Below are positions 13,880 through 62,021 of a stretch of 64,000 nt of DNA, piece after piece. The DNA is from a bacterium (GTDB lineage Bacteria > SZUA-182 > DTGQ01): NCBI GenBank assembly GCA_040752695.1, contig JBFMGO010000019.1, positions 1-64,000 on the forward strand, read 5' to 3'. The translations under genes and the position numbers were made by a program. Within the stretch, counting starts at the first letter, position 1, and each line of letters opens with the position of its first letter. A model generated the notes under the pieces. That model was not told where the DNA came from. It saw only the letters and a program-made list of their open reading frames with translations, and did not search any database.

Positions 13880-15055
13880 TTAACCTGCTACCGTTACCAG
13901 GGCTTCTTCCAATCCGGCATCTTTTCGCAGTTGATCTGCCTTGTCGGTTTTTTCCCAGGTAAATTCCGGTTCATTCCTCCCGAAGTGGCCGTAAGCGGCA
14001 GTCTTTTTATAGACAGGACGTCGAAGGTCGAGATGCTTGATAATGCCACGGGGGGTTAAATCGAAATTGTCCCAGACGATTTCTCTGATTTGGTTCAGTG
14101 GAATCCGCCCGGTGCCAAAAGTATCCACCATAATGGAAACGGGCTTTTCCACACCTATGGCATAAGCCAGTTGCACCTCGCAGCGCTCGCAAATCCCGGC
14201 AGCTACAATATTTTTGGCAATATAGCGGGCCATATAGGAAGCTGAACGATCCACTTTGCTGGGATCTTTTCCGGAAAAAGCCCCTCCGCCGTGACTTCCC
14301 AATCCGCCATAGGTATCGACGATGATTTTTCTCCCGGTCAGGCCGGTGTCGCCCATGGGCCCGCCGACCACGAACCGTCCTGTGGGATTGACATAAAAGA
14401 CCGTGTCAGAGTCAAGGAGTGATGGATCAACTACCTCTCGAATGACCTGGCTTATGATATCCTCCCTGAGGGTCTTGTTATCGACTTGCGGGCTGTGTTG
14501 AGTAGAGATGACTACGCTGTCCACCCTCACCGGTTTGTTATCCACGTATTCCAGCGTCACCTGGCTTTTGCCGTCAGGCCGTAAATAGGCAAGAGTGCCG
14601 TTTTTCCGCAGATCAGCCAGTCTTTGGGCCAGCCGGTGGGCTAACAGGATGGGCTTAGGCATAAGAGTTTCGGTTTCATTACAGGCATAGCCGAACATAA
14701 GCCCCTGGTCTCCGGCACCTCCGACATCCACTCCCTGGGCAATGTCAGGGGACTGCTCATCAATGGAAGTGAGTACAGCACAGGTCTGGTAATCAAAACC
14801 ATATTGAGCATCCGTATAACCAATTTCCCGAATCGTGCTGCGGACAATTTTGGGTATGTCTACATAACACCTGGTGGTGATCTCTCCGGCTACAAAGGCT
14901 AAGCCGGTAGTCACTAATGTTTCGCACGCCACTCGTCCCATGGGATCCTGGGCTATAATGGAATCCAAAATCGCGTCCGAGACCTGATCCGCTACTTTAT
15001 CCGGATGTCCTTCGGTGACCGACTCTGAGGTAAAGAGGAAATCTTTCTTGTGCAT
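13880..15055 (-). CDS. metK: S-adenosylmethionine synthetase
   Basis: [44 protein letters not shown]. Confidence 0.98.
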
Positions 15056-15167
15056 GGCGTTACTCCTGGCCTTCGTTATTTCGTTGCCGTTTCAGATTAA
15101 ATGAGCAAGTAAACACGTATGTAAATAAATAAGTAAGTAAGTAAAGCATGGCGAGTTGCTGCTTTCG

Positions 15168-15212
15168 CCTTGCCTACCCTTGCCTATCCTTGCCTACCCT
15201 TGCTTACCCTTG
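15168..15212. repeat. 10-bp tandem repeat (CCTTGCCTAC) x about 4.5 overlapping ACP stop codon
   Basis: ccttgcctac ccttgcctat ccttgcctac ccttgcttac ccttg. Confidence 0.85.
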
Positions 15213-15476
15213 ATATGCAAGTATGAATTTGTTCACCAGTTGTCCATAGGTTTTCAGTTCCTCTCGTCTACTAATGAAAATGTTGAACTTTTTCTTGATG
15301 GTATCCAAAAGCTCGACCTGTTGCAACGAGTCGAGCCCCAGATCCTCTTCCAGGGATGTTTCTGGTTTGATCAAATCATCGGCAATCTCGAATTGTTCTA
15401 CAAGAATTGACCGGAGTGCTGCCTCCGCATTTTTATTTTCCGTTATTTCCTTATTGGTATCCTTATTGGTAATCAT
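15204..15476 (-). CDS. Acyl carrier protein of type II PKS
   Basis: 90 aa, LEEDLGLDSL phosphopantetheine motif; GGAGG RBS; follows KS/CLF. Confidence 0.93.
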   Translation of the reverse strand: MITNKDTNKEITENKNAEAALRSILVEQFEIADDLIKPETSLEEDLGLDSLQQVELLDTIKKKFNIFISRREELKTYGQLVNKFILAYQG

Positions 15477-15572
15477 ACATGAACCTCCATAGATTGGCTA
15501 TGAAAATGTGAGCGCATACTGGCTATCATATATTTATTGGCTACCGCTATTGGTTGCTGCGGCTATTCGCAG

Positions 15573-16832
15573 CTACGGCTCCCATCGCCGGATAATCATG
15601 GCCCTGTTGGCACCGCCCATTCCTCTTCCCAAAAGCAGTGCGGTGCGGACCTGTGCAGGTTGTGGCTTTTGGCCGACAAAGCGAAGGGGTGACTGAATAA
15701 CCGGCTCTTCCAGGTTCAGGGTTGGAGCGATGATTTCCTGTTGCATGGCCTTGAGGGCAAAGACAAGGTCAATAGCTCCTGCCGCTGCGATACCGTGTCC
15801 GGTGGCGCTTTTGGGCACACTTACAAAGGGTCTTCCGGCAGCAGGGCCGAGGGCCAGCATAAGAGCCTCGATCTCTGACCGGTCATACTCGACATTTCCG
15901 AGCCCTGCCGGGCTGACCAGATCGATTTCTTCTTCGCTCAGGCGGGCGCTTGCCAGAGCTTCACGAATCGCTCTGGCATAATGGCCGGGATCGGTGCTGG
16001 GTTTCATCATGTGACTTGCGTCCATGGTTGCGCCAAATCCCAGAACTTCGGCCAGAATTCTTGTTCCCCGTGCCTGTGCATGTTCGAGGTCTTCCAGAAC
16101 GACCATGGCTGATCCTTCGGCCATGACCATCCCTGTGGCCTTTCTGTCCAGAGGCCGGTACACGCTTTCGGGCGGTCCGTCACTGGTTGACAGCCAGCCT
16201 GAAGCATGGTAGCAGACCAATCCGTAGGGAGCGATTCCGGCTTCTCCTCCACCGCATAAACTGATATTCAGCACGCCGTTTCTGATCAGCCGGTATCCGG
16301 CATTCAAGGCATCAAAAGAGGCTACACACTCGGTGACGAAGGTTTTGCCGTATCCTCGCATATCGTAGGATATGGTGATCTGCCCTTGTGTAGCTGCATA
16401 GAACCAGGCTATGGCCTGATAGGGACCGATAGCGCCGGGGTCTTTGGCCGTGTACATTTTGGCTAACTCTTTCTCTCCGAATTCGGAACCACCCATATTG
16501 TTTCCGAACTGAAAGCCGATCAGGTGTGGATCTCCCATGTTTTTCGGATCAAGAGCCGCATCGAGCAGGGCCTCTTTGGTGGCCACAAAAGCATATTGGG
16601 AAACGACATCCGTCTGTGCCCTGAACTGTCGGCTGATAGCATGCTTTAAAGGATCGAAGTCTTCTACCATACCGGCTACGGCCACAGGGATTTCAGCAGC
16701 GGGAAACCGGGTAATGGGCTTGATCTGAGATTGCCCCGAAAGGATGTTATTCCAGAAATCATGGACGTTCTGGCCTCCGGGAGCAACAATTCCCTGTCCT
16801 GTGATAACGACGCGCTTTTGCATATGAGTCAT
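15573..16832 (-). CDS. Type II PKS chain length factor (KS-beta), atypical
   Basis: YQAIAWFYAATQGQITI matches aromatic CLF signature (YQSFAWFYAVNTGQISI type); VPKS..G; lacks first catalytic His; VTECVAS where CLFs usually have VxEQAG. Confidence 0.88.
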   Translation of the reverse strand: MTHMQKRVVITGQGIVAPGGQNVHDFWNNILSGQSQIKPITRFPAAEIPVAVAGMVEDFDPLKHAISRQFRAQTDVVSQYAFVATKEALLDAALDPKNMGDPHLIGFQFGNNMGGSEFGEKELAKMYTAKDPGAIGPYQAIAWFYAATQGQITISYDMRGYGKTFVTECVASFDALNAGYRLIRNGVLNISLCGGGEAGIAPYGLVCYHASGWLSTSDGPPESVYRPLDRKATGMVMAEGSAMVVLEDLEHAQARGTRILAEVLGFGATMDASHMMKPSTDPGHYARAIREALASARLSEEEIDLVSPAGLGNVEYDRSEIEALMLALGPAAGRPFVSVPKSATGHGIAAAGAIDLVFALKAMQQEIIAPTLNLEEPVIQSPLRFVGQKPQPAQVRTALLLGRGMGGANRAMIIRRWEP

Positions 16833-16845: not shown

Positions 16846-18108
16846 CTAAGCTGCAATTTCGGTTAAGCTGATGCAGGAATGAAGTCCCGAGAAGCCGCTG
16901 GCATTGGAAATAACCGTGTGCACCTCGGCCTGCCTGGCTTTATGGGGTACATAATCCAAATCACACTCAGGATCGGAAAACTCGATGTTGATGGTCGGAG
17001 GAATCACATCGTACATAAGAGAGAGCACGCTGGCGATAATTTCAATGCTTCCGACTCCCCCAAGCGCATGTCCGATGCAGGATTTGATAGAACTTATGGG
17101 GATCTTGTAGGCAGCGTCTTTGAACACGTTTTTATAGGCTCCTGTTTCATGGGAGTCGTTCTGCTGCGTAGCACTGCCATGAGAGTTGATGTATTGTACC
17201 GAATCAGGCGAAAGTCCCGGATCGGTCAAACATTTTTTGATGGAGTAGGCAGTTTCGATCCCATCGGGTTTTAAGCCGGTCATATGAAAAGCGTTGCAAT
17301 TGGATGAAAAACTGATGATCTCGGCTAAGATGTGCGCCCCCCGTGCCCTGGCGTGCTCATATTCCTCCATGATAATGATGCCGCTGCCTTCCCCCAGTAC
17401 AAAACCATCCCGCTTGGCGTCAAAGGGGCGCGATGCCCGCTTCGGATCATGATTCCAGGACGTGGAACAGGCACCGATTTTATCGAAGGCTGCCAGGGTG
17501 ATAGGACAGATCGGCGCCTCGGACGATCCGGTAACCATGACCACTGCCTCACCGGACCTGATCAGTTCAAAAGCATAGCCTGCAGAATCAAGCCCGGTCG
17601 TGCAGCCGGTGGATATGCCGATAGCGGGTCCGTGTAATGTGAACCTTTGGGCAATTTCCGAGGTTATGGCATATGGTGAAGCATAAAGGTACAGGTTCTT
17701 ATCCACCGCTCTCCAATCAGGAGGACAGGCACCATCTTTGGTGGCTTCCCGCCAGTTTTGCTCCATCCTGGCAGTACCGCCGATGGCGCTGTTGATACAG
17801 GTTCCAATAAGACTGCGATCCTCCTGCGTCAAATTCAGTCCTGAATTCCTGACCGCTTCATCGGCAGCGATGACCGCAAACTGGATATAACGGTCCATGC
17901 GGCCGATTTCCTCGTCAGTCAAACCAAGCTCTTTTGGGTTAAAATCCGGCACTATCGCAGCGACCTGTGACCGAAAGGCTGAAGGATCAAATAAATCGAT
18001 CTTCTGTACCGTGGATCTGCCTTCGCATAGTCCCTGCCAGAAGGCAGGGACACCAATTCCCATGGGTGTAACCGTACCCATGCCTGTAATGACAACACGC
18101 TTCACCAT
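16846..18108 (-). CDS. Type II PKS ketosynthase alpha
   Basis: STGCTTGLDSAG active-site Cys, NAFHMTGL, INSHGSATQQND, ISSIKSCIGHALG, DPECDLDYVP: aromatic KS-alpha signatures rather than FabF. Confidence 0.95.
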   Translation of the reverse strand: MVKRVVITGMGTVTPMGIGVPAFWQGLCEGRSTVQKIDLFDPSAFRSQVAAIVPDFNPKELGLTDEEIGRMDRYIQFAVIAADEAVRNSGLNLTQEDRSLIGTCINSAIGGTARMEQNWREATKDGACPPDWRAVDKNLYLYASPYAITSEIAQRFTLHGPAIGISTGCTTGLDSAGYAFELIRSGEAVVMVTGSSEAPICPITLAAFDKIGACSTSWNHDPKRASRPFDAKRDGFVLGEGSGIIIMEEYEHARARGAHILAEIISFSSNCNAFHMTGLKPDGIETAYSIKKCLTDPGLSPDSVQYINSHGSATQQNDSHETGAYKNVFKDAAYKIPISSIKSCIGHALGGVGSIEIIASVLSLMYDVIPPTINIEFSDPECDLDYVPHKARQAEVHTVISNASGFSGLHSCISLTEIAA

Positions 18109-18251: not shown

Positions 18252-19421
18252 TTAAGAGGGCCAGAGAGTGCCGTCGATAAGGTTATCCACCTTGCTGTCG
18301 AAGGCAGCAAGGGCTTCTTGATTGCTTTCCTCCGTAGTACGCACACTTCGCTCTGCCCAGCGCTGACAGATGGTACAGGACCGGCAGCCGACAAGTTCAC
18401 AGTGCTGGCCCATGATTTCCTCAAGAAATCCATCCAGGGCTTTATTATCGATATAAAGCGGGAACCGCTTTCCGGCGCAGGATTTCAGATAGTCTCTCTT
18501 TACCAGATCCGGCCTGTTCAGCAGTTCCCCTGCCACCTGCTCTGAACCTGGTTCATCGGCAAATCCGAAGGGGACAAGATCCACGAGATTGCCGCAATAC
18601 TCACGCCGTGAGTAGGCACTGACGACCCGCCGCAGCCAGGCGGAGGACTTCTTCCGATCGGCGAGTTTAAACAGGGTATAGCCGATCTGTTCATAATAAT
18701 GAAGATCCTCGGGCCGCACCCAGTCTCCGCGGATAAATTCCACAGGATCACTCAGCCGCTTCAGGGTGCAAAGGCTGTAGCAGTAGTCAATGAAAAATCC
18801 CCGCTGGCTTCCGTGAATCTCCGTACTGTGGCCGACCGTATTGGCATGGTAATACTGGAATGGACATTCATGAAGACAGGTATTATTGACATAGATCTGA
18901 AGTTCGCACTTCACTGCCTTGCGCAGCGCTTTCAGCACCGGGGAATTCCTGGTGAGCGATTGTGAAAGGGTGATCAAATCAACCCCCATATCTTCGAGAA
19001 TCCTGGCTTTTCGTATGCTGTCCACATGACAATATACCGATGCAGCCACCTGGATATGAGGGAAATGACGTTTGATGAATTGCAGCAAAAAGGGTGTGCC
19101 TACGGTAATCCTATCAACACCGATCTCCGAAAGCCAGCCCATGAACGCCAGAAGTTCCCTGTGGCCCTCACTGGTGAATTCTCTTCCCCCGGCGCACGGC
19201 GCATTGAGGAGATAGGTAAACTCAAGATCATGGGCATGAACTTCCCTGATGTAATCCTCTACAGCCGGCCGGTCGATCTGAGGAAGAAGAAACGCCGGAC
19301 GGCCGCCGCCGATGATATCAAGGGGAAGCTTGCCGAAAACATCCTTGACCTGATACTGCCTTAACTCGGCAACGAACTGTTTATCCCAATTACATGCTAA
19401 ACTGAATTGCAATAATGGCAC
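18252..19421 (-). CDS. U32-family Fe-S protein (candidate O2-independent hydroxylase)
   Basis: YLLNAPC, ASVYCHV, Cx3C-x27-Cx3C cluster, WVRPEDL..Y, FKLADR, extra C-terminal Cx4Cx2Cx2C. Confidence 0.85.
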   Translation of the reverse strand: MPLLQFSLACNWDKQFVAELRQYQVKDVFGKLPLDIIGGGRPAFLLPQIDRPAVEDYIREVHAHDLEFTYLLNAPCAGGREFTSEGHRELLAFMGWLSEIGVDRITVGTPFLLQFIKRHFPHIQVAASVYCHVDSIRKARILEDMGVDLITLSQSLTRNSPVLKALRKAVKCELQIYVNNTCLHECPFQYYHANTVGHSTEIHGSQRGFFIDYCYSLCTLKRLSDPVEFIRGDWVRPEDLHYYEQIGYTLFKLADRKKSSAWLRRVVSAYSRREYCGNLVDLVPFGFADEPGSEQVAGELLNRPDLVKRDYLKSCAGKRFPLYIDNKALDGFLEEIMGQHCELVGCRSCTICQRWAERSVRTTEESNQEALAAFDSKVDNLIDGTLWPS

Positions 19422-20197: not shown

Positions 20198-20980
20198 CTA
20201 CTTCCTCTTCATTTGAAACTGTCTTACGGCTGCATGAAAATCAGCGGGTTTTACCGATACAAACAATTCATATGCCTGGCGGCCCGGATGGGGAAGCTCG
20301 GTATAGCACCACTTCGGCAGTGGCCTGAAGCTCTCGCCCCTTGAAAGCTGCTGCCGGAGCTGCTGAAACCCGAACAGGAAATTAATAATCAGCAGCATGG
20401 GCTGCTGAGAGCGGAAAAGGCAAAGACTCCGCCAGAACCGGAACCAGTCGCCAAGCGACATTGGCGTATACTGCATTTTTTCCTCATGCGGAACCAAGAC
20501 CCCCATGCGCATGTATATGCACTTCCAGCCATTATAGGTTGGATACTCGTAGGCAGTCCTCACTGATGAAGGATTGCGGCCGAGTGCTTCTGAAACGATG
20601 AAATTCAATGTGTCATGGTCCGGGTGAGCGCCTTCGTAGGCCGGTACAAAGACCGAATCGGGAGACAGAGTATCGAGCGCACCGCTGACTGCCTCATACA
20701 GCGCAGGCATCTGGTTTATCAATTCTCCATCCTCGAAAGACCAAAATCCGGTATCTGCATCACCCAACCCGTGATACGCAAGCAGCCTGAGTGATTCCTG
20801 ACGCCGGATGAGGCTTTTCTCATCCTTTGCACCTGCCGTCATCCACCGCAAAACAAGCCGGTCGCCCTGCCGGGCAATCTTCTTCATGCGCTGAATGATC
20901 CACAACTCATCGTCTGGATGAGAAAACAGCATAAGATGGGTTGTTCTCTTCCGGTTGTTTGCCTGCGGGGTTTTCATCAT
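20198..20980 (-). CDS. PIG-L/LmbE-family N-acetylglucosaminyl deacetylase
   Basis: FSHPDDE and GAHPDH metal-binding motifs, IRRQE, FEDGEL. Confidence 0.88.
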   Translation of the reverse strand: MMKTPQANNRKRTTHLMLFSHPDDELWIIQRMKKIARQGDRLVLRWMTAGAKDEKSLIRRQESLRLLAYHGLGDADTGFWSFEDGELINQMPALYEAVSGALDTLSPDSVFVPAYEGAHPDHDTLNFIVSEALGRNPSSVRTAYEYPTYNGWKCIYMRMGVLVPHEEKMQYTPMSLGDWFRFWRSLCLFRSQQPMLLIINFLFGFQQLRQQLSRGESFRPLPKWCYTELPHPGRQAYELFVSVKPADFHAAVRQFQMKRK

Positions 20981-20994: not shown

Positions 20995-22317
20995 CTAAAA
21001 AAAATAGTAGAAATTGAGATACCAGTGATCATTCCTGCGGAACTTCCACAGTCCCTCATCCTGATCGCGGGTGTCGAACAAATTCACTCCTGCCTGCACA
21101 ATGGCATGGTCAACGAGGAGATATTGTATTTCGCCATTCACAAAAATTTCACGAGCCTGAGGATTATAGTAACTGATCAATTGCGGCTGCACATATTCAT
21201 GGAACAGTCTGCTGTTGATTCCCAGACTGTAGGTTGTTGCCACCTTCTCGCTCAAAGGGCGATTTCGAGAGGCCGTCTTCCGGTACTCCTCGTACTTGAG
21301 CATCCGGTCTGTGTAATATTGGAGAGTCACGGTCGTCGTTCCCCATAAGGTGCGCTCCCAGCCGATGAGTGCCCGCACCGAATCGTTGGCGATGCCGGGG
21401 TCATCACCGTTTCGGTCGTCACCTGCCCGCCGGACCGCCTCGAAGCGCCAGATCGAGGAGAAAACCGAGGCCTCAAAATGCATTCCAAAGGCGCGAAGCC
21501 TCGAATAAAAAGGGCGCAACTGCATGGTCTTTTGATCAAACCGATAGGATGCATCATCGTCCCAGCCATAGAAAGCGCACAGGGCAAGCTGTGACCGGGG
21601 TCCATTCACCATCAGCCGTGCTGCGGCTTCGGAGTTGCCGAAATTCGGCTCCGGAGTCTCCGCTTCCGGATTTTCCCCTCCAGAGGAGGGGGGGGCAAAG
21701 GCCCAGATGCCTTCCTCATCATATTTACCGGGGACAAACCGGGTAATCCAGACGGATTCGAATAAAAAAGGCCCGGACATGAATTTCAGACGGCAGCCTG
21801 GCACGCCGATCAAAAAATCGTTGCTGGTCTTTCGGTCCAGACGGGGAATAATAAATTGCCGGCAATCCCTCGGATTGATGAGATCGGTCAGAATGAATCC
21901 ATCGGCTACCCCCCAGGGAATAATCTGCTTGCCGGCGGTGAGTTCGAGGTGCCTGCCGCGCCATTGGCCATAAAACTCACATGCATTGAGGTTGGCATCA
22001 CTGTCGCTCTGCTGCCGCAAGTCCTGCTCGACATCGAACACGGCAAGACTTCTGAACGATTCGTGTTTCGTCTCGAGCTTAAAGCGGCTTAAAAGATCAA
22101 GAATGAAGTAATCACCGGATGTTTTTTCCTGCTGCGTGCTCTGGTCTGATGAAAAGAGCTGATAGCTTCTCGTGCGCAAAAAACCTGTCAGATGCAGGAC
22201 CTCGCCACTGGATGAAAAACACGACCCTTTTGTGGAGCACAGAATCAAAAAAACCGTGAACAGGAAAACAAAAAAGACCGCTCCCTGATCGTGGCCGGGC
22301 CTGCTACTCCATTTCAT
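20995..22317 (-). CDS. Outer-membrane beta-barrel protein (DUF1302-like)
   Basis: Signal peptide, AGKQIIPWGVADG...DLINP, C-terminal YLNFYYFF. Confidence 0.7.
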   Translation of the reverse strand: MKWSSRPGHDQGAVFFVFLFTVFLILCSTKGSCFSSSGEVLHLTGFLRTRSYQLFSSDQSTQQEKTSGDYFILDLLSRFKLETKHESFRSLAVFDVEQDLRQQSDSDANLNACEFYGQWRGRHLELTAGKQIIPWGVADGFILTDLINPRDCRQFIIPRLDRKTSNDFLIGVPGCRLKFMSGPFLFESVWITRFVPGKYDEEGIWAFAPPSSGGENPEAETPEPNFGNSEAAARLMVNGPRSQLALCAFYGWDDDASYRFDQKTMQLRPFYSRLRAFGMHFEASVFSSIWRFEAVRRAGDDRNGDDPGIANDSVRALIGWERTLWGTTTVTLQYYTDRMLKYEEYRKTASRNRPLSEKVATTYSLGINSRLFHEYVQPQLISYYNPQAREIFVNGEIQYLLVDHAIVQAGVNLFDTRDQDEGLWKFRRNDHWYLNFYYFF

Positions 22318-22996
22318 CTTTGATTACCCTGCCGTCTTTCAGTGAAATAACCCGTCTTGCGCAATCGATAATGTGCTTATCATGGGTGGAGAACAAAAAG
22401 GTGGTGCCGTGAGTCCGGTTTAAGCGAATCATAAGATCGAGGATGGTCCTGGCAGTTACCGAGTCGAGGTTGGCGGTTGGTTCATCCGCCAGGATCAGGG
22501 CCGGGTTGGTCACCAGTGCCCGCGCGATCGCCACCCGCTGACGCTGGCCGCCACTGAGTTCATCCGGCCGGTGGCGGCTGTAGTCGGCAAGCCCGACTTC
22601 CGCAAGCCATTGTACTGCCAGCTTGCGCCGCTCCTGATTCGAAACCGGATGAAGCAGGAGAGGAAACTCGACATTCTCCTGAGCCGTCAGCACGGGAATC
22701 AAATTAAAATTCTGAAAAATAAATCCTATTTTTCGACTGCGCACCGCCGCCTGACCTGGTTCGTTCAATTCACCGATATCTTTTCCTTCCAGAAATAAAT
22801 GTCCTTCGGTAGCCTTGTCAAGACAGCCGAGCAGGTTCATCAAGGTCGTCTTGCCCGATCCGGACGGCCCGGCAATGGCTGCAAACTCGCCAGGCATAAA
22901 GCTTAAGGTGACATCCTGCAAGGCAGGAACCTTTGTCTTGCCCAAAAGATAGGTTTTGCTCAACCTTCGGGTCTGAATCAATGGAATGCTATTCAT
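22304..22996 (-). CDS. LolD/MacB-type ABC transporter ATP-binding protein
   Basis: GPSGSGKTT, LSGGQRQRVAIARAL, LADEPTANLD, STHD. Confidence 0.95.
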   Translation of the reverse strand: MNSIPLIQTRRLSKTYLLGKTKVPALQDVTLSFMPGEFAAIAGPSGSGKTTLMNLLGCLDKATEGHLFLEGKDIGELNEPGQAAVRSRKIGFIFQNFNLIPVLTAQENVEFPLLLHPVSNQERRKLAVQWLAEVGLADYSRHRPDELSGGQRQRVAIARALVTNPALILADEPTANLDSVTARTILDLMIRLNRTHGTTFLFSTHDKHIIDCARRVISLKDGRVIKDEME

Positions 22997-34040: not shown

Positions 34041-34121
34041 TTATGGCTGGTGATGAATTACGGCTGATGATAAATAATAGCTGGTGATAAGTTGCGGTAA
34101 TTGCCGGATTATGGCTGGTGA
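34041..34121. repeat. Degenerate 17-bp tandem array echoing the 3' end of AOR 2
   Basis: Units start at 34041, 34058, 34075, 34092, 34109 (ttatggctggtga consensus); the last is the gene's own stop region. Confidence 0.75.
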
Positions 34122-40208: not shown

Positions 40209-40216
40209 AGTCGGTC

Positions 40217-51391: not shown

Positions 51392-51487
51392 AAAATAAAT
51401 ATAGCATGTGCTTCACTATCCTGGCAAGGAGGCTTTTTTCTTTCTATGTCTCAATACAACAAACTTGCCTTTTTGTAAGTGCCATTT

Positions 51488-52362: not shown

Positions 52363-53739
52363 TTACTCATGGATATTCTGATACGCTGTGGCATACTTCA
52401 AGATTTCCTCATCCCATTCACCGAAGTCGCGGGCTAGGCAGACATAGGCCCATTGCGGATGCTTTTTCCGGTATGCGTCGATCAAATTCCACCATCCGTT
52501 CTCGATGTGCGGCGAAACGTAAAAGCGGGGGTGCAAAAGATCGTCGTCTTCGGCAATGATCCTTTCCCGTCGGGCGATGCGCTCAAGTTCGGTATTGGCA
52601 TAGATGCGGATGCCAAGGCTTATCCAGGCACAGTCAGGGTCCATCCCGGCCACCCTGTCCAGGCTCTCTGTGATCGTTTCCAGGGTCTCGTTCGGGCCCC
52701 CTAAAAGCAAAGAGACAATCAGCCGCATCCCGCTCGCCTTGACCATTTCGGCCGCTTCCATGATCTGATCCACGGTAAAGCCCTTGCCAAGTCCTTTAAG
52801 CGTGACGGAAGATGCCGAGTCCATACCGCCAAAGTCGATGGAGTTGCATCCTGAGCGGGCTGCCAAGAGCAGAAAATCCTGTGACAGGTACTCTGGATGC
52901 GGATAGAAGGTGGCATCCCAGCGAATGTCAAGACCGGCCCTTAAAATCTCCTCACAGATGGCGGCGGCATGGTCCAGCGGCAGATTGAACAGGTTATCCA
53001 CGAAACTGAAGTCGGAAATTCCAAGGTTCCGGCGGCAATACTTCATTTCAGCCGCTACCTGGCGGGGGTCCCGAAAGCGCAGGGTTTGCCCTTCCAGATT
53101 CGGATAAACACAGTAGGAGCAGGACATCGGACAGCCTCTCTTCGACTGGATATTGCCCCAGATTCCGGCATTGATGGTTGCATACTGGGCGCAGTGACCG
53201 GCCTGCCGCCAGGGTTTCGGAAAATCAGTCAGATCCGGGACCTTCCAGGGCTCGGCAGGTTTTCCCCGAAGCATGAGGCCCGGAATATCATCATACGGTT
53301 TCCCTTCGGATAATCTGCGAAGCAGCTCTGCCATGGCCATTTCACCATCTCCGATAATGCCGATCTCAAGATCCAGATACTTCAAAAGGGCCTGTGGAGC
53401 CAGAGAGAATCCTGAACCACCGGCAACGATGGGAACCCGAGCATGCTTTTTCAAAAGATGAGCGAATTTTTGATGGGTCCGAGTATAATCGATGTTCAAA
53501 AATTCCGGATAGAGGGTATTGTCCAGATTGCGGATCGACAGGCCGATAACATCCGGCCCGCTTCCATTGGATCTCTGAATAGCCTCGATCACTTTTTGCT
53601 CGGGTTTTGGTTCGAAGCAAAGATCGAGCATGTCTACCCTGTGCCCGAGGCTGCGCAGCCAGCCAGCCAGGGTTGCCATCCCCAGCGGGTAGATGGCAGG
53701 AACCTTTTCAAAATTGGAAGAAACAAGAAGTACTCGCAT
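52363..53739 (-). CDS. Cobalamin-dependent radical SAM enzyme (short, SIRNLD type)
   Basis: YPLGMA, IGLSIRNLDN, GDGE, KRGCPMSCSYCVYP.LEG, LGGPNET. Confidence 0.92.
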   Translation of the reverse strand: MRVLLVSSNFEKVPAIYPLGMATLAGWLRSLGHRVDMLDLCFEPKPEQKVIEAIQRSNGSGPDVIGLSIRNLDNTLYPEFLNIDYTRTHQKFAHLLKKHARVPIVAGGSGFSLAPQALLKYLDLEIGIIGDGEMAMAELLRRLSEGKPYDDIPGLMLRGKPAEPWKVPDLTDFPKPWRQAGHCAQYATINAGIWGNIQSKRGCPMSCSYCVYPNLEGQTLRFRDPRQVAAEMKYCRRNLGISDFSFVDNLFNLPLDHAAAICEEILRAGLDIRWDATFYPHPEYLSQDFLLLAARSGCNSIDFGGMDSASSVTLKGLGKGFTVDQIMEAAEMVKASGMRLIVSLLLGGPNETLETITESLDRVAGMDPDCAWISLGIRIYANTELERIARRERIIAEDDDLLHPRFYVSPHIENGWWNLIDAYRKKHPQWAYVCLARDFGEWDEEILKYATAYQNIHE

Positions 53740-53746: not shown

Positions 53747-54064
53747 CTATACTATCTGAAGATCAGCTAAAGAGACGCCGAAGGCCTCCAGGCTGTCTAT
53801 AGTCAGGGGTAAAAATTCTTTCGGTGTGCTCTTTAAAAAGCCCCGTGCAACCGCATCCTGCGTAACCTGCTCAAGGTGAGCCTCGCCGGCGATTTTTTCC
53901 GCCGTGCTGATGACGCCATTTTTGGCAAGTTCTTTATATTGAGCAGGAATGACCAAAAGCATGTTGCTCAACAGCTCCTTTGCTTCATTGCTCCAGTCCA
54001 CAATATCCTCCTTTTGTGCCTCTTTCCTCTTCTCCTTCTTCCATGGCCATGGTGTCACTCTCAC
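53747..54064 (-). CDS. Small helical protein (DUF2621/PCP-reductase-like), paralog of domains in the 1104-aa protein
   Basis: WSNEAKELL..ML..IP..YKELA...AE.IA....V...VARGF...TP. Confidence 0.7.
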   Translation of the reverse strand: MRVTPWPWKKEKRKEAQKEDIVDWSNEAKELLSNMLLVIPAQYKELAKNGVISTAEKIAGEAHLEQVTQDAVARGFLKSTPKEFLPLTIDSLEAFGVSLADLQIV

Positions 54065-56622: not shown

Positions 56623-57897
56623 TTACCGTGCCCGAAGCAGATCGACCGGCAGTTGTCTGGCTGTCCGCCATCCTGCATAGAGACTGGTCAGGCTAGTCAC
56701 GGCCACCATGACGCCGATCATAATCACGATATCGAAAGGCTTGAGAATAAGGTGAAGCGAACTGCCGCCCAGTATCCAGGCAGCGACATCACCCAGATTG
56801 AGCCCTGTGCCCCTCAGGGCAAGGAAGACACCCGATCCGATTACCGCACCCAGGCTGGCGGCTATGGCGCCCAGCCAGATCCCCTCCAAAATGAAAAGAG
56901 CGGTAATGTGCATGCTGCGAAGGCCCATGGCCCGCATCGTACCGATCTCCCGCTTTCTTTCCTGGACGGCAAACATCATCGAGTTGGCGATCCCGAACGA
57001 AACCATCAAAAGGATCACGATATTGGCCAGGGCCAGCATCAGACCGTATCCGGTAGCAAAATTGACAAAGATCGATCCCCCTTCCTGAAAGGTGCGAACC
57101 GCAAGACCCTTTTGGCGGATCATCGGCTCTGTTTGCCAGGATCGGGCCACATTGCCGCTTTGCGAAGGATCATCGACATAGCAGAGGATCTCACTGACCT
57201 GCCCGTGGGCCTGCACCAGTTCCTGAGCTGTTCCTAAGGGGACATAGGCCACGCGCTCCACCCAGGGGACGGTCTTTTTATAGACGCCCACGACTTCGAC
57301 ATCCAGGGCATTGAGACTGCCGTCTACGGTCTGGCACAAAAGGGTGAGGGTGGCTCCCTGTTCGATCCCGAGAGTCTCACTGATTGTCGTGCTGATCATG
57401 ATCTCGGGTTTATCCAGGCCGCTTAAGCCTTTCTCTGCCTTGAGGTTCGCGGTCAGGGGAGACTTCTCGAAAGGATCGATGCCGGACACGATCACGCCCA
57501 TGGAACTGAAGCCCGAATTGACCGTGGCCTGAAAGCGCAGGCGGGTGGTGACAGAGGAAATCCCCGGATGAGAGCTTTGCAGCGTGCGCAGCCAGTCACC
57601 GGACACAGGAACCAGATGTTCACGGTCCAGGACCGGCTCCAAAACTTGAGCCTGCTCCGAGGCGGCAGTTTCTCCCTCGACCGCTTTGCGGATGCTGACA
57701 TGGCCGGTGAGAAAAGTGACAATGTTTTGAATCATCTGTACCTTCACGCTATGGCTGAAAACCAGACTGGTCAGTCCCAAAAGAGTGCACAGGCTTAAGG
57801 TCAGCCCGATCAATAGGTTGCGGCGGCGATGGCGAAGGACGTTTCGAAAGGAAAGGTCGATCAGACGACGGGTGAAGCTATTGTGTCCGCTCTTCAT
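56623..57897 (-). CDS. FtsX/LolE-type ABC transporter permease
   Basis: RNVLRHRRR, V.ERKREIGTMRAMG, four TM. Confidence 0.92.
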   Translation of the reverse strand: MKSGHNSFTRRLIDLSFRNVLRHRRRNLLIGLTLSLCTLLGLTSLVFSHSVKVQMIQNIVTFLTGHVSIRKAVEGETAASEQAQVLEPVLDREHLVPVSGDWLRTLQSSHPGISSVTTRLRFQATVNSGFSSMGVIVSGIDPFEKSPLTANLKAEKGLSGLDKPEIMISTTISETLGIEQGATLTLLCQTVDGSLNALDVEVVGVYKKTVPWVERVAYVPLGTAQELVQAHGQVSEILCYVDDPSQSGNVARSWQTEPMIRQKGLAVRTFQEGGSIFVNFATGYGLMLALANIVILLMVSFGIANSMMFAVQERKREIGTMRAMGLRSMHITALFILEGIWLGAIAASLGAVIGSGVFLALRGTGLNLGDVAAWILGGSSLHLILKPFDIVIMIGVMVAVTSLTSLYAGWRTARQLPVDLLRAR

Positions 57898-59186
57898 GTC
57901 GCCCTCAGTGCCTCCACCGGCACAAGATGTGCCGCCCGCCTGGCGGGTAAAAGCCCAACCACGATACTCCAGAGCATCATGCCAAAAGAGGTGGTCATAA
58001 CATTGCCCAGAGAAAGGGGTAGATACAGATAGTCAGATCCGATAACCAGGCCGAAACTCTTGCCAACGGGTATGCCGACACGCTGAGCAATAAAAATGAT
58101 GCCAACGCCCAGCAATGTCCCGATAAGGGTTCCGCTTACACCTACAACCAGGGACTCGCAGAGGAAATAGTGCATCACCTGCCTGCGGTTAAAGCCAAGG
58201 GCCATGATGGTGCCGATTTCCCGCGTACGCTCCTGGACCGCCATGTAAAGGACATTGGCCAGGCCGATCGCCAGAACGACAAAGAGAATTCCGGTCATAA
58301 TACCCGGAATAAGTTGATTCACCTTGATAATCCCCATAACCGGTCCAGCCACCTCCATCCAGGTAAAGACCTGCACGTCGTACCCTTTTGCCAAAAGCTC
58401 TTCCCTGATCAGCCGTGCTCCTTCCTCCACGGAAACCCCTCGCGCCAGATCAACCATGATGACCTGCGTGGCCGAATCGTCCACTCCGGCCAGTCGCCGG
58501 ACCGAATCCAGGGAGAGAAACAGGGCGGTATTCATAAAAAAGTCGATGGAACGCACCCGAAAGAGCCCTCCCAGGGTGACACTGGTGGCATTCATATACC
58601 CATCGGGCGTGATGCCGAGCAGAATCAATTCGTCCTTCAAGCCGACCTTAAGCCGGGCTGCCGTATCTTCCCAGATGGCTATTCCGGGGGGATCACTCTT
58701 TCCCGGCCAGGGACGAACCCCTTCGACGAAACGTACATCTGAGCCGAGCATCGGCTCATTGTCCAGTTCGAGGCCGAAAATCTGTACCGGCCTCGACCGC
58801 TCGCCGGTAGAGAGCAGCCCCCACAGCTTGTACCGCTCGCGGACCCGCGCTACCTGAGCCATTTCGCTTACTATCGATCTGACAGCGCCAGCGTCCGGGA
58901 TCAATTCTATGCGGCCCGTATTTTCGCCGGTGACCAGGAAATCGGAAACATGACGCGGCAAAAGAGGCTTTCCGCCCGAACCCGTGCCTGCAACAATGAC
59001 TACATCACTCAAAAGAACCCGTCTGGCTGCTGTTTCAAGGTTTGAGCGCACTGATTCGGTGAAGGATCTGGCTACGATGATGGCCGTAATGCTGAAGGCG
59101 ATCGATGCACCGATAAGAAACGAGCGATGCCGGTTCCTCAGCAGAAAATTTTTGATTGAAACCCTGATGAATCTGGTAAAGGTCAT
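57894..59186 (-). CDS. FtsX/LolE-type ABC transporter permease
   Basis: RNRHRS, V.ERTREIGTIMALG, PARRAAHL.PVEALR. Confidence 0.92.
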   Translation of the reverse strand: MTFTRFIRVSIKNFLLRNRHRSFLIGASIAFSITAIIVARSFTESVRSNLETAARRVLLSDVVIVAGTGSGGKPLLPRHVSDFLVTGENTGRIELIPDAGAVRSIVSEMAQVARVRERYKLWGLLSTGERSRPVQIFGLELDNEPMLGSDVRFVEGVRPWPGKSDPPGIAIWEDTAARLKVGLKDELILLGITPDGYMNATSVTLGGLFRVRSIDFFMNTALFLSLDSVRRLAGVDDSATQVIMVDLARGVSVEEGARLIREELLAKGYDVQVFTWMEVAGPVMGIIKVNQLIPGIMTGILFVVLAIGLANVLYMAVQERTREIGTIMALGFNRRQVMHYFLCESLVVGVSGTLIGTLLGVGIIFIAQRVGIPVGKSFGLVIGSDYLYLPLSLGNVMTTSFGMMLWSIVVGLLPARRAAHLVPVEALRAT

Positions 59187-59199
59187 GTGCGTTTTATCA

Positions 59200-60510
59200 T
59201 CACTGGAAAGATTTTATCTTTGACTGGAACGAGGCAGCCGCTCTGGAAGCAAGCTGCGTCCAGTTGTACTTTTGTCGCACGAAATCTCTGGCCGCCTGCC
59301 CCATTGCCTGCCTCTGGTGAGTATCCTGCAAAAGGCCGACGATGCTGTCTGCAAGAGCCATGGTATCATTGGGAGGGCATCGCCTTCCCAGCCGCTCGCT
59401 GACGATTCTGCCTGCGAATCCGAGATTGGATACCACTGCCGGTTTTGCCGAGGCCATGGCCTCAAGCAGGGTGATTCCGGCAGAATCAGAGGCAATGTAA
59501 GGCGAGATGAACAGATCACAGGCCGCGTACACATTCTGCTTGACTTCCCCCGAAACAAAACCGATGGTGTTAACCCGGTCGTGAATGCCCAGCGCCCTGG
59601 CAATGGACTTGAGACTGATGGCGTAAGATGGAAAATCGCTCATGTTACCGGCAATAACCAGGCGGGCATCGGGGAAGCGGTCGAGAACCGCCGGGAAAGC
59701 GGAAATCAGGTTATGCAGCCCCTTTTGCGGCTCGATTCTGCCCACGAACAGCAAAACCTCCCCTGTCCAGCCCCGCTTCTCTTTGAATCCCGGGACGGGC
59801 TCGTGAAAAAATTCGTCGGTCCAGATACCGACTTCATGGACCTGGATCTCGTCACGCGGAATATGCAGATCAGCCGAAGCCGTATCGGCGAATTCCGGGC
59901 TGACTGCCCAGATCGAATCGAATATCCGGATAAGCTGACGGAACTCACCGATTATCTGCTCGTAGGTAACTTTCGGCTTCCCCATGCTCTCCAGCATCGG
60001 CCCAAGCTCTTCCATATACCGGAAGACCGTGGGATAGGAATGCAGCAAGAGATTCAAGTGCAGATCAGGATGGATTCGCTTTATGATCTGGCCAAAATGT
60101 GAATAGCCGTCGGTTATCTGCAAGACATCGAGATCAAGCTCACCGAGCAGCTCAAAAAAGGTCTGGCCTATATTCCGGTAGGCCTCCTGATTGTGCGGCG
60201 GCATGAAGACATAGCCAAGTTCCTCGGCAATTTCGATAATAAAGCTGCCTGAAGTGCCCATCATTTCCCTGATGGAGTCCGAGACCTTCCCGGCCACGCG
60301 GGTTAAGTCAACAATCGGAATAGTGTGAACATGGAGGTTGCAAAGTCCCGTACCGAAGGCTGGCTCGGCATCCTCGGCACTGGATAGCTTTACCAGGAGG
60401 CAGTGCACTTCATGTCCCAGAATGGCCAGCGCTCTCCCAAGGTGGCGAATCCGCTCCATACCTCCTTGATACATGGGAAACCAGGCTTCCATGAGTCCAA
60501 TTTTCATCAT
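59200..60510 (-). CDS. Glycosyltransferase family 4 (GT-B)
   Basis: GGMER, FVGRIEPQKG, DSAGITLLEAMAS, YNW. Confidence 0.92.
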   Translation of the reverse strand: MMKIGLMEAWFPMYQGGMERIRHLGRALAILGHEVHCLLVKLSSAEDAEPAFGTGLCNLHVHTIPIVDLTRVAGKVSDSIREMMGTSGSFIIEIAEELGYVFMPPHNQEAYRNIGQTFFELLGELDLDVLQITDGYSHFGQIIKRIHPDLHLNLLLHSYPTVFRYMEELGPMLESMGKPKVTYEQIIGEFRQLIRIFDSIWAVSPEFADTASADLHIPRDEIQVHEVGIWTDEFFHEPVPGFKEKRGWTGEVLLFVGRIEPQKGLHNLISAFPAVLDRFPDARLVIAGNMSDFPSYAISLKSIARALGIHDRVNTIGFVSGEVKQNVYAACDLFISPYIASDSAGITLLEAMASAKPAVVSNLGFAGRIVSERLGRRCPPNDTMALADSIVGLLQDTHQRQAMGQAARDFVRQKYNWTQLASRAAASFQSKIKSFQ

Positions 60511-60524
60511 CGATTCCTTGTTTT

Positions 60525-62021
60525 TCAGTTTTCAACCGGTACGGGGACGATAACAGGCACCGGCTGGCGTGATATCTCTTCTTCTATGCCAAGGCAGGCA
60601 TGATTTCCGTATAACTGCGCATTTTCAGTGACTAAATCAAACATCCCCTGATCGACCATACCAATGCCGGGAACGGAGAATTCCTGCTGTTCTTCTCCAA
60701 GCTCCCTGTGGATGATCTCGATCAGCCGGTCCGCACCGATGGTCGGAGAGATGTAATGGTGGGGCATCAAAAGATTGGTTCCAGGCTGCAAGACTCCTTC
60801 CTCGATGGCAATCTGCTCAAGGCGGGTCCTCGGGTATATCCGCATACCAAGATGGATAAGCTTGGCCCGATGTCCCTCCCAACGGTTGCGAATCCATATC
60901 CGCTTTAAAACCTCCAGGGTTGCCTGCACTGTCCTTGGGGTTTCCCCTGGCGCGCCGAAAATGATCGACAGAAAAACTTCCAGGCCCAATTCGGTACAGC
61001 GATTGGCGACCCGTTCGATGAGAGAGCTTGACGCGCCTTTTTGCATGCTGTCAAGCATCTGGTCGGAAAATGAATCCGCAGCTAAAGCTACATGCACACA
61101 GCCCGCTTCGGCCATAAGGGGAAGCAGTTCAAGGCTCCGTTCATTGGCTGCCAGATTGGCTGCCCACTGAAGGCCCGGCTTTCGCCGGATGATCGCCTGG
61201 CACAGATCCATTGCCTGCTCATGGTGAATATTAAATACATTGTCCACGAAGAAGACCGATTTTATCCCGAAGGAATACCGGATTTCCATCAATTCATCTA
61301 CCACCCTGGCGGTAGATCGCAGCCTCAGGCCGTGTCCCTCGATGGATGGATAGGTGCAGAAGATACAATTGAGCGGGCAACCCCGCTTCGTCTGCACATT
61401 GGCGATAATACGCTCGTCCCAGGGATTGACATAGGAATGGTTATCCAGGTAATTCCTGGCTGGCGTGGGCACTCTGTCAAGGTCTTGGATCAGTTTCGGT
61501 GCCCGCTCTACGTAACTGCCTTCAGAGTCGAGAAAAGCCACTCCCTGCGGTAAAAGACGCGGATCTTTCCCCTCTTCCAGAGCCTCGACGATATCCACCA
61601 GTACTTCCTCGCCTTCGCCGCGAACGGCCAGGTATCCTTCACCAAGACTCCTCAGGATCTGCTCGGTACAGATGGTTACTGCCGCTCCGCCCAGAACGAT
61701 CGGCAATCCGCCCCTGCCCCGCTCGTCATTACCCGAAAGAAGTGCAATGTTCCGAACCACCGACAGAACAGCGGGAACAAAACTGATGGCGGACGGATAG
61801 CTGATCGCATCGAGATTGCGGATGGAAATCCCGATCACATCGGGCTGAAAATCCCGCAATACTCTTTTTACCTCCTCCTCGTACTGCATCCAGAGCGTCA
61901 GATCGAGGCAGCGTACTTCATGGCCCCGCTGATTCAAAACCGCCCCCAGAATGGCCAGCGCCAGAGGAGGAGCGGGGGTTACGAATAATTCACGACTGCT
62001 GTTACACAAGAGAACTCTCAT
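60525..62021 (-). CDS. Cobalamin-dependent radical SAM enzyme (short, SIRNLD type); first gene of the cluster
   Basis: PPLALA, IGISIRNLD, RGEGEE, KRGCPLNCIFCTYPSIEG, FGAPGET; GAGG RBS. Confidence 0.92.
   Translation of the reverse strand: MRVLLCNSSRELFVTPAPPLALAILGAVLNQRGHEVRCLDLTLWMQYEEEVKRVLRDFQPDVIGISIRNLDAISYPSAISFVPAVLSVVRNIALLSGNDERGRGGLPIVLGGAAVTICTEQILRSLGEGYLAVRGEGEEVLVDIVEALEEGKDPRLLPQGVAFLDSEGSYVERAPKLIQDLDRVPTPARNYLDNHSYVNPWDERIIANVQTKRGCPLNCIFCTYPSIEGHGLRLRSTARVVDELMEIRYSFGIKSVFFVDNVFNIHHEQAMDLCQAIIRRKPGLQWAANLAANERSLELLPLMAEAGCVHVALAADSFSDQMLDSMQKGASSSLIERVANRCTELGLEVFLSIIFGAPGETPRTVQATLEVLKRIWIRNRWEGHRAKLIHLGMRIYPRTRLEQIAIEEGVLQPGTNLLMPHHYISPTIGADRLIEIIHRELGEEQQEFSVPGIGMVDQGMFDLVTENAQLYGNHACLGIEEEISRQPVPVIVPVPVEN

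Follow-up and report, generated by a model that had tools for sequence, protein, structure and literature searches.

We analyzed a 64,000-nucleotide stretch of bacterial DNA, hereafter the window (contig JBFMGO010000019.1, positions 1 to 64,000 of the forward strand, assembly GCA_040752695.1, GTDB lineage Bacteria; SZUA-182; DTGQ01), in which the region 13880-62021 carries a large gene cluster built around an aromatic type II polyketide synthase (PKS). Open reading frame (ORF) listing together with Pfam and NCBIfam scans placed 38 ORFs in this block, all on the minus strand. Thirteen of the gene junctions overlap and 24 of the 37 measure 20 bp or less, so that the roughly 38 co-oriented, overlapping genes described in an initial annotation of the DNA were recovered. 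The GC content was 50-57% in each 2-kb window inside the block versus 40-46% in the flanks, with a block mean of 53.5% versus 48.1% genome-wide, and the two central 10-kb windows (54.8-54.9% GC) ranked at the top of the 494 windows of the genome. We read the block, with a probability of about 0.6, as a single biosynthesis-and-export island whose aromatic polyketide would be made and tailored without O2 and delivered to the outer membrane.

The window is predicted to encode a genuine aromatic type II PKS. The ketosynthase (KS-alpha) has Cys169, His275, His310 and Lys342 in place, and its best match in the PDB was the act KS 1tqy_A at 383 bits, versus 326 bits for the best FabF and 257 bits for 9s5h_B, an entry titled only "3-oxoacyl-ACP synthase". 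Its nearest relatives in a search of 5.8 billion proteins were 49-54% identical, many of them labelled as minimal PKS KS-alpha. The chain-length factor (CLF, or KS-beta) gene lies 13 bp downstream; its product has Ala in place of the second catalytic His and carries the AWFYAA motif common to CLFs, and its nearest relative among the same proteins was 40% identical. The position of Gln161 in the act CLF, a residue with a role in decarboxylative priming, is Cys in the window, Arg or Lys in the relatives, and R, G, A, S, E, T or Q in other aligned CLFs, from which we conclude that this residue is variable outside the classical actinomycete CLFs. The single-domain aromatase/cyclase matched TcmN (2rez) with 112.7 bits and an E value of 1e-31, and WhiE (3tvr) with 97.9 bits. 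Together with the acyl carrier protein (ACP) and the PF04199 cyclase, these proteins make up the aromatic PKS that the initial annotation had proposed, and PDB matches, Pfam and phylogeny agree on it. The cupin that it had called TcmJ-type held up as a cupin only, being a generic Cupin_2 protein with weak likeness to TcmJ-type entries (2gu9, 24.5 bits). Pfam scans found no ketoreductase (KR) or dehydratase (DH) domain in the cluster. A catabolic cluster for aromatic degradation was considered and ruled out by the minimal PKS, the ACP and the TcmN-type aromatase.

To place the synthase, we built a quick IQ-TREE phylogeny of 51 KS and CLF rows, rooted on 8 FabF rows; the set was drawn up without aryl-polyene KS and without the KS and CLF of the clr, wexrubicin, den, ant and pcy clusters. 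The window KS-alpha fell inside the KS-alpha clade (SH-aLRT 99) and the CLF inside the CLF clade (100), and neither grouped with FabF, which answers the FabF part of the phylogenetic check proposed for the cluster in favor of a type II PKS. Within these clades the window KS-alpha and CLF appear to form a separate long branch.

A further gene of the core, immediately next to the aromatase gene, encodes a TIGR04076 protein, the signature of the cluster family described below. Its AF2 model had a pLDDT of 86.5, and Foldseek found no match for this model in the PDB at E<=1e-3. A wide VIA-align comparison, which stayed below the trustworthy level, ranked the N-domains of XdhC/CoxI-family proteins at the top (3on5_B, Z 6.6, rmsd 4.7, 78 residues aligned; 2we7_A, Z 6.5, rmsd 4.5, 81 aligned). 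The window has one TIGR04076 domain; relatives have a tandem pair of 190-224 aa (for example L039:1478-2050), always just upstream of KS-alpha, and three Cys and a CPD motif are invariant across 15 domains.

The tailoring genes are of kinds that work without O2. None of the 38 proteins matched an oxygenase, a KR or short-chain dehydrogenase/reductase (SDR), or a class I methyltransferase family at E<=1e-3, as had been claimed from the sequence. Six B12 radical S-adenosylmethionine (rSAM) proteins and four proteins of the aldehyde oxidoreductase (AOR) family had also been counted, and domains and motifs, with the Pfam cut-offs for the AORs, bore out both numbers. Each of the six rSAM proteins combines a B12-binding with a radical SAM domain and carries the CxxxCxxC motif. 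The three of about 450-500 aa scored best against TIGR04072, with none reaching its equivalog cut-off of 360 bits, and the three of about 690-735 aa scored best against BchE, HpnR or HpnJ, far below the cut-offs. The MetK gene at the downstream end of the cluster is one of three copies in the genome; the others, on contigs C52 (33962-35131) and C26 (38898-40043), are 88% and 80% identical to it. The C52 copy lies about 7 kb from a B12-rSAM-like gene (C52:26172-27314).

The four AORs pass the Pfam cut-offs for both AFOR_N and AFOR_C, with 194-315 bits per domain. In an 11-row alignment that included all four, C289, C292, C296, C510, E316 and the RGxDH motif were invariant, columns that we take to be Fe-S and pterin cofactor-binding residues. 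The two AORs searched against the PDB, AOR4 and AOR1, matched aldehyde oxidoreductases with 257 and 224 bits versus 168 and 140 bits, over partial length, for the dearomatising BamB (4z3w_A); judged by these scores, they are closer to the aldehyde oxidoreductases. MoaC is encoded in the genome, and tblastn (E<=1e-15, at least 50% coverage) found no further AOR genes there. AOR4 belongs to a large family (42-47% identity) in uncultured anaerobes. One relative, the 845-aa P0139, is fused to an SCP2-like Alkyl_sulf_C domain, which suggests that the AOR4 clade takes hydrophobic substrates from SCP2-type carriers. At another locus (L044/L045, G096:C10) an AOR4-type gene stands amid four B12-rSAM genes with no KS within 20 kb, and rSAM and AOR may together form an independent module.

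The cluster also contains a possible hydroxylation module. The claim of two U32 proteins stood for the first, a 389-aa protein with 47 bits in Pfam; the second, the N-terminal domain of about 280 residues in a 1104-aa fusion protein, reached only 14.6 bits in Pfam yet is a clear paralogue of the first, the two being 31% identical over 275 residues (E 1e-46). Eight Cys columns are conserved in at least 94% of 35 family rows; the 389-aa protein has all eight and the fused domain has none of them. A model of the complex of the two U32 domains gave an ipSAE of 0.86 versus 0.00 for the best of 3 controls, with at least 88% of contacts agreeing between runs and partner pLDDT of at least 85; of the pairs used to calibrate this mark, 51 of 78 solved complexes attained it, as did 2 of 108 mismatched pairs. 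The two U32 domains are thus predicted to pair. Likewise, five SCP2-like domains were found where at least five clear SCP2 domains had been announced, and only two of the five, the 142-aa protein and the third repeat of the 1104-aa protein (66.3 bits), pass the SCP2 cut-off in Pfam. The first repeat passes Alkyl_sulf_C (36.3 bits versus 27), and the second is recognized by repeat likeness only. The repeat part of the 1104-aa protein had one other carrier, of 772 aa, among 1.84 billion representative proteins.

In ubiquinone biosynthesis, UbiU, UbiV and UbiT carry out an O2-independent hydroxylation of a hydrophobic aromatic substrate with two U32 paralogues and an SCP2 partner, and both UbiU and UbiV have Fe-S Cys residues. 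The window likewise has a U32 pair, whose members are predicted to bind each other, and SCP2 domains; it differs in that one partner has lost all the conserved Cys and is fused to three SCP2 repeats.

The glycosyltransferase of family 4 (GT4), the PIG-L protein, MetK, and the MMPL and Lol-like export proteins of the initial annotation were all confirmed by domain scans. Both LolA_like proteins have signal-like N-termini, and the 440-aa exported protein gave a 22% BLAST match to the DUF1302 gene of a related cluster (G432, below). Three cluster proteins have no firm family: one of 249 aa that resembles a DUF3108-type barrel, the 440-aa exported protein with its C-terminal aromatic tail, and a 127-aa four-helix membrane protein. 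The only ABC ATPase of the cluster and the two permeases lie in opposite halves of the block, which argues that the 48 kb form one working unit. The positions of all these features are collected in the Table.

Table. Features of the gene cluster in the window, in order of position, with the matches on which each assignment is based.
Feature	Positions	Strand	Basis
MetK (SAM synthetase)	13880..15055	-	TIGR01034, 610 bits
ACP	15204..15476	-	PP-binding, E 2.7e-9; LGLDSL motif
CLF (KS-beta)	15573..16832	-	CLF clade; Cys at act-CLF Gln position, second His lost
KS-alpha, Cys-His-His triad	16846..18108	-	1tqy_A match; KS-alpha clade
U32-family protein, 389 aa, candidate O2-independent hydroxylase subunit	18252..19421	-	PF01136, 47 bits; PDB match 5d88
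DUF3108-like barrel protein, 249 aa	19443..20192	-	Weak Pfam; atlas structure rows meet bar for DUF3108 name
PIG-L/LmbE-type de-N-acetylase	20198..20980	-	PF02585, E 2.9e-16
Exported protein, 440 aa, probably outer-membrane barrel	20995..22317	-	Signal-like N-terminus; C-terminal ...YYFF
LolD/MacB-type ABC ATPase	22304..22996	-	TIGR02211, 234.7 bits, below cut-off; PF00005
DUF1302-like exported protein	23071..24453	-	PF06980, 23.0 bits vs cut-off 23.2; signal-like N-terminus
LolA_like periplasmic carrier 1	24468..25319	-	PF17131, E 1.5e-47
B12 radical SAM protein, 695 aa	25309..27396	-	BchE/HpnR/HpnJ-like, below cut-offs
CN_hydrolase (nitrilase-superfamily amidase or N-acyltransferase)	27393..28451	-	PF00795, E 6e-26
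LolA_like periplasmic carrier 2	28494..29306	-	PF17131, E 3e-49
MMPL/HAE3-type RND transporter	29296..31599	-	PF03176; TIGR00921, 178 bits; about 11 hydrophobic segments
Small membrane protein, 127 aa, four hydrophobic segments, no family	31606..31989	-	
AOR-family enzyme 1	32006..34021	-	AFOR_N + AFOR_C; conserved Cys and RGxDH
AOR-family enzyme 2	34109..36118	-	Relatives 39-43% identical, mostly outside PKS contexts
B12 radical SAM protein, 447 aa, TIGR04072-like	36123..37466	-	221.4 bits vs cut-off 360
SCP2 domain protein, 142 aa	37442..37870	-	PF02036, 24.9 bits vs cut-off 21.3
B12 radical SAM protein, 691 aa	37827..39902	-	
TIGR04076 family protein, signature gene of cluster family	39921..40226	-	68.8 bits vs cut-off 33
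TcmN-type aromatase/cyclase, single domain, 151-aa SRPBCC	40217..40672	-	2rez
PF04199 cyclase (OxyN/DpsY type of initial annotation)	40701..41543	-	E 2.6e-33; 42-52% identical to related-cluster cyclases
Amidohydro_2 protein (decarboxylase, hydratase or cyclase superfamily)	41664..42593	-	PF04909, E 2e-35; distant LigJ, LigW matches
AOR-family enzyme 3	42686..44635	-	45-46% identical to second AOR of G432 and L047
AOR-family enzyme 4	44632..46533	-	Orthologue of PKS-linked AOR in other phyla
Cupin_2 protein	46530..46982	-	PF07883, E 1e-11
1104-aa fusion: Cys-less U32-like domain, PCP_red/DUF2621-like segment, three SCP2-like repeats, C-terminal DUF2621-like segment	47037..50351	-	
YhgA/Rpn-type transposase or nuclease gene, broken, three frames	50618..51391	-	PF04754 on two pieces, weak DUF4351 on third; low-GC DNA
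Alpha/beta hydrolase	51488..52312	-	Abhydrolase_1, Abhydrolase_6
B12 radical SAM protein, 458 aa, TIGR04072-like	52363..53739	-	308.5 bits vs cut-off 360
DUF2621/PCP_red-like small protein	53747..54064	-	PF11084, 34.3 bits
SCP2/Alkyl_sulf_C-like protein, 160 aa	53985..54467	-	Below both cut-offs
B12 radical SAM protein, 735 aa	54464..56671	-	Best matches BchE and HpnJ, below cut-offs
Two FtsX/LolC-E-like ABC permeases	56623..59186	-	PF02687; TIGR02212 below cut-off
GT4 glycosyltransferase	59200..60510	-	PF00534, E 9e-32
B12 radical SAM protein, 498 aa, TIGR04072-like	60525..62021	-	262.7 bits vs cut-off 360

We also determined whether clusters of this kind occur in other genomes, using samples of 401 Thermodesulfobacteriota-type, 401 Nitrospirota-type and 301 Omnitrophota-type genomes. 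KS-alpha relatives occurred in 5 of the 401 Thermodesulfobacteriota-type genomes (counted at E<=1e-125), each time with an AOR4-type gene 2-3 kb away and an adjoining B12-rSAM gene, and in 2 of the 401 Nitrospirota-type genomes, both with an adjacent AOR, so that an AOR adjoins the PKS in all 7 cases outside the Omnitrophota. The AOR4-type gene itself was present in 7 genomes of the Thermodesulfobacteriota-type sample, including all 5 with KS-alpha; in one of the two AOR-only genomes the AOR adjoins several rSAM genes with no KS within 20 kb, and in the other the gene is on a 5-kb contig. The Omnitrophota-type sample had KS-alpha relatives in 50 of its 301 genomes. Out of 20 contexts fetched from these 50, CLF was found in 20, B12-rSAM in 19, cyclase in 19, aromatase in 19, TIGR04076 in 17 and Amidohydro_2 in 11, and 18 had beside the PKS a small DUF2621/PCP_red-like ORF (80-140 aa) that matches segments of the 1104-aa protein. 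From these counts, the constant core consists of TIGR04076, KS-alpha, CLF, ACP, one B12-rSAM, cyclase and aromatase, usually with Amidohydro_2, and the AORs and the export set are lineage-specific additions to it. The expected co-occurrence of AOR and rSAM genes with the PKS in other genomes was therefore general for the B12-rSAM genes and confined, for the AORs, to genomes outside the Omnitrophota.

The gene order shared by the Thermodesulfobacteriota-type relatives can be illustrated with G084, which reads B12-rSAM, AOR, ApbA-type reductase, tandem TIGR04076, KS-alpha, CLF, ACP, cyclase, aromatase, SDR and Amidohydro_2. G432 has a second AOR and, directly upstream and contiguous with the PKS, genes for MarR, LolA_like, DUF1302, MMPL and LolA_like proteins, and in G250 an MMPL gene and a pair of LolA-like genes precede the PKS at a distance of about 10 kb. 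The window proteins and this anaerobe family are 46-51% identical for KS-alpha, 33-43% for CLF, 43-49% for AOR4, 42-52% for the cyclase, 42-54% for the aromatase and 35-51% for TIGR04076. For the accessory proteins (AOR4, cyclase, aromatase and TIGR04076), this family is the nearest one. The relatives have about 10-18 genes, some of them with SDR/KR, ApbA-type reductase or flavoprotein genes, all of which are missing in the window. Instead, the window has four AORs and six rSAMs, and it alone among the contexts compared has rSAMs additional to the one of the core, a LolCDE-like system, genes for glycosylation and a U32/SCP2 module. Its cluster is the largest member seen here of an uncharacterised cluster family in uncultured anaerobes.

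As a control we examined 80 metagenome loci picked by generic KS motifs. CLF was present in 4 of the 4 loci with a KS of at least 49% identity, and CLF, cyclase, aromatase, TIGR04076 and AOR were present in 0 of the 76 with a FabF-like KS of 45% identity or less. A genome-contig scan with KS-alpha alone returned 13 loci at 35-43% identity that are apparently FabF-like, and missed the true relatives. Closer to home, KS-alpha and CLF queries run on genomes related to that of the window (41) and on its own small phylum (20) gave only FabF-level matches of at most 35% identity, and the cluster was not found in the 19 other genomes of the window's phylum.

These comparisons bear on whether the block is one system at all. 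A small PKS cassette might simply lie beside unrelated genes for lipid modification and for lipid or lipoprotein export, with the common orientation an accident of packing. The best model for three of the rSAMs, TIGR04072, is a lipid-biosynthesis model, and relatives of the AOR1/2 type stand in non-PKS contexts. Moreover, the core PKS genes, which are contiguous in related clusters, are split here, with KS-alpha, CLF and ACP at 15-18 kb and the cyclases at 40-42 kb. The block is also interrupted by its sole large intergenic gap, 1136 bp of low-GC DNA (50352-51487) that holds the broken transposase gene. Against such a composite stand the close and overlapping junctions and the uniformly high GC content reported above, the fact that PKS genes at either end of the first 37 kb enclose tailoring and export genes, the separation of the ABC ATPase from its permeases, and the recurrence of the AOR4/rSAM-PKS and MMPL/LolA-PKS links in other genomes. 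We therefore consider an accidental composite improbable. The transposase remnant (Transposase_31, 50618-51391) lacks the middle of the profile, and it may be what is left of an event by which the two halves were brought together or moved.

Among characterized systems, the closest in core layout are the "ancestral" non-actinomycete type II clusters for clostrubin (clr), wexrubicin, dendrubin (den), AQ-256 (ant) and pyxidicycline (pcy) (PMC7693217). These clusters share with the window KS-alpha, CLF, ACP, one or more TcmN-type cyclases and an OxyN-type (PF04199) cyclase; the den cluster has, like the window, no oxygenase or methyltransferase gene, and some such clusters come from strict anaerobes (PMC7693217). 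Unlike the window they are small and, as described there, without AOR, B12-rSAM, U32, SCP2, TIGR04076 or MMPL/LolA genes, and their products are free anthraquinone-type pigments or antibiotics (PMC7693217). Predicted clusters nearer to the window have been catalogued: of 7 KS/CLF pairs tried in E. coli, 3 were reported as soluble, and that of Candidatus Desulfofervidus auxilii was one of the 7 but not of the 3 (PMC6638757); and Candidatus Omnitrophica was listed among 14 phyla with KS-CLF pairs (PMC10132072). By gene content, both belong to the same family as the cluster in the window. In the literature search, which is the basis for saying that there is no characterized match, no paper gave a product or an association with AOR, rSAM, TIGR04076, U32 or SCP2. 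The claim that no characterized cluster has this combination of genes is to that extent upheld, and the view of it as a one-off is not: the window holds an elaborated member of a catalogued KS/CLF family. What is already known is the kind of type II PKS and the catalogued KS/CLF pairs, and what is new is the strongly elaborated gene set of the window.

The product might alternatively be a diffusible aromatic polyketide antibiotic or pigment of the clostrubin or dendrubin kind, for which the MMPL, ABC and LolA-like genes would provide efflux or self-protection. The type II polyketides characterized from anaerobes are secreted antibiotics or pigments, and they have the same KS-CLF-ACP-TcmN-OxyN layout (PMC7693217). 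The ATPase is matched by MacB- and DevA-type models too, and most of the related clusters have no export genes. We regard this possibility as unlikely. The two LolA-like proteins, the two barrel-like exported proteins and the five SCP2-like domains fit a water-insoluble cargo crossing the periplasm, not simple efflux, and the LolA_like-DUF1302-MMPL-LolA_like set is contiguous with the PKS in G432 too. In addition, 50 of the 301 Omnitrophota-type genomes, which are small (about 1-3 Mb), have kept the core, and such retention is unusual for an optional antibiotic.

Envelope lipids and pigments offer a second comparison. The gene sets for aryl-polyenes, flexirubin and hopanoids (HpnI/J/K/N/P/R) include LolA-like, MMPL/RND, glycosyltransferase, PIG-L-type deacetylase and B12-rSAM genes, and the window too joins a type II synthase to LolA-like, MMPL, GT, PIG-L and B12-rSAM genes. 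It differs from the hopanoid systems in that its rSAM and MMPL proteins fall far below the cut-offs (HpnJ 151.5 versus 577.6 bits, HpnR 135.9 versus 650, HpnN 75.6 versus 751.9), and from this group in general in that its KS-alpha and CLF are of the aromatic-PKS type, in a tree drawn without aryl-polyene KS. The anammox ladderane cluster, which makes an unusual membrane lipid, resembles the window in having a KS/CLF-type (FabF) heterodimer and B12-rSAMs of the TIGR04072 kind in an anaerobe (bioRxiv 10.64898/2026.05.19.726425). The window differs in that its rSAMs are below the TIGR04072 cut-off, its KS-alpha is nearer to the act KS than to 9s5h_B, and aromatase and cyclase genes are present.

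The host genome is 96.6% complete, and neither a heme-copper oxidase (COX1) nor a cytochrome bd oxidase was found in it. Two MqnA/D-family matches above cut-off indicate futalosine-pathway genes, MenA was not found in the genome, and a squalene-hopene cyclase was represented there by weak, partial matches only. Because it has no terminal oxidases and has MqnA/D-family genes, the host fits a strict anaerobe that already makes menaquinone. The proposal of O2-independent tailoring in an anaerobe is supported by the kinds of tailoring gene and by this lack of oxidases. The same genome has B12-rSAM and KS-like genes at C98:4254-8810 and C148:4075-8171, the former also with a LolA-like gene, and these loci may be separate lipid or aryl-polyene-type clusters.

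The futalosine-pathway genes speak to another possible function, that of a redox-active polyketide quinone or anthrone in the envelope serving as an electron carrier or shuttle and not as a structural lipid. Anthraquinone-type rings usually arise by unreduced TcmN-type folding with subsequent hydroxylation, and U32/SCP2 systems such as UbiU/V/T serve quinone biosynthesis. The dendrubin scheme shows such a route to anthraquinone-type rings (PMC7693217). Some relatives come from respiratory anaerobes, as does the AOR relative P0151, which a source assigns to Candidatus Desulfofervidus auxilii. With a host that already has futalosine-pathway genes, and with no prenyltransferase in the cluster, we consider such a carrier very improbable; the earlier idea of a quinone-like carrier is weakened accordingly. 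Outright replacement of the host's quinone was ruled out by the futalosine-pathway genes.

The best reading of the product is a C-methylated, redox-edited, glycosylated aromatic polyketide at the outer membrane. In the mechanism that we propose, the PKS would make an unreduced poly-beta-ketone, from which folding by the three cyclase-type proteins would give a multi-ring phenol. The six B12-rSAM enzymes, supplied by the cluster's own MetK, could then introduce C-methyl groups or other alkylations. The Fe-S U32 protein and the Cys-less U32-like scaffold, with its three SCP2 lipid-binding domains, may act together, like UbiU/UbiV/UbiT, as an O2-independent hydroxylase of the hydrophobic intermediate. 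Ferredoxin-level reductions, most likely of carboxylate to aldehyde, would be the part of the four W/Mo AORs; ring reduction to an alicyclic, sterol-like scaffold is possible but unsupported. The AOR stands beside an ApbA-type reductase in relatives, which suggests a conversion of acid to aldehyde to alcohol. GT4 could add an aminosugar that PIG-L deacetylates and the CN_hydrolase perhaps re-acylates, and transport of the lipid-like glycoconjugate as far as the outer membrane would fall to the MMPL transporter, the two LolA-like carriers, the two exported barrel-like proteins and the LolCDE-like ABC system. The polycyclic membrane lipid of the initial annotation went beyond these results, in that the export set points to the outer membrane and nothing shows ring reduction or a structural lipid role.

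Several observations weigh against the reading of the block as one O2-free biosynthesis-and-export island. The branches of the window KS-alpha (0.77) and CLF (1.33) are long, and the best trees join KS-alpha to the actinobacterial-type clade as its sister (support 96, then 92), outside the anaerobe clade; a tree that holds it with the anaerobe clade is worse by 4.4 log-likelihood units, a difference too small for rejection (p-AU 0.098). The relatives of AOR1/2 type are mostly PKS-free, with no PKS gene in 11 of 12 contexts. None of the 20 Omnitrophota-type contexts has an AOR, and for that reason the AORs are accessory. Export genes were absent from the same 20 contexts and from within 20 kb of the PKS in 3 of the 5 Thermodesulfobacteriota-type genomes, and MMPL and ABC systems are also common as drug-efflux or self-resistance genes. 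As for the hydroxylation module, the NCBIfam UbiU and UbiV models matched neither U32 protein at E<=1e-5, and because the two U32 domains are paralogues, the complex model may mirror a paralogue or homodimer likeness only. Lastly, the product is predicted from the genes, and no sequencing run was listed for 40000-48000.

The surroundings of the block are of lower GC content. Directly downstream of MetK, at 9174-13788 on the minus strand, lie genes for an FMN_bind protein, a major facilitator superfamily (MFS) transporter and a histidine kinase/response regulator pair, which may regulate or serve the cluster. On the plus strand at 1205-8020, flanking the island, is a polysaccharide export set that comprises Bac_transf, Wza-like Poly_export/SLBB, a beta-barrel, Wzz/GNVR and a tyrosine-kinase-like ATPase. 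A gene for a DUF2141 protein with a hydrophobic N-terminal segment lies in low-GC DNA at 62230-62844; it has the orientation of the cluster and immediately precedes its first gene. No RNA elements were detected in the window with Rfam at the gathering threshold or with ARAGORN.

What is known of aromatic polyketide chemistry comes, to our knowledge, almost entirely from aerobic actinomycetes, in which tailoring is the work of O2-dependent oxygenases. The cluster and its family provide a defined gene set in which ring methylation, hydroxylation and reduction without O2 can be studied, with W/Mo AORs, B12 rSAMs and the U32/SCP2 pair as candidates, and they supply a genomic context for two orphan families, TIGR04076 and the DUF2621/PCP_red-like small domain. 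That the core is present in about one sixth of the sampled small Omnitrophota-type genomes suggests a physiological role, not an optional antibiotic. A broader and quite tentative possibility is that anaerobes of the Omnitrophota, Thermodesulfobacteriota and Nitrospirota types and of the window lineage use an ancient type II PKS as a primary-metabolism-like, O2-free route to an envelope polycycle, which in the window lineage would be glycosylated and would act at the outer membrane as a stand-in for hopanoids or sterols or as a redox carrier. If this is true, no AOR-family enzyme would have been assigned to the biosynthesis of a natural product before these W/Mo AORs, and the U32/SCP2 pair would be the first anaerobic hydroxylase of a polyketide. 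The product of the cluster could be an undescribed lipid or pigment biomarker of anoxic habitats.

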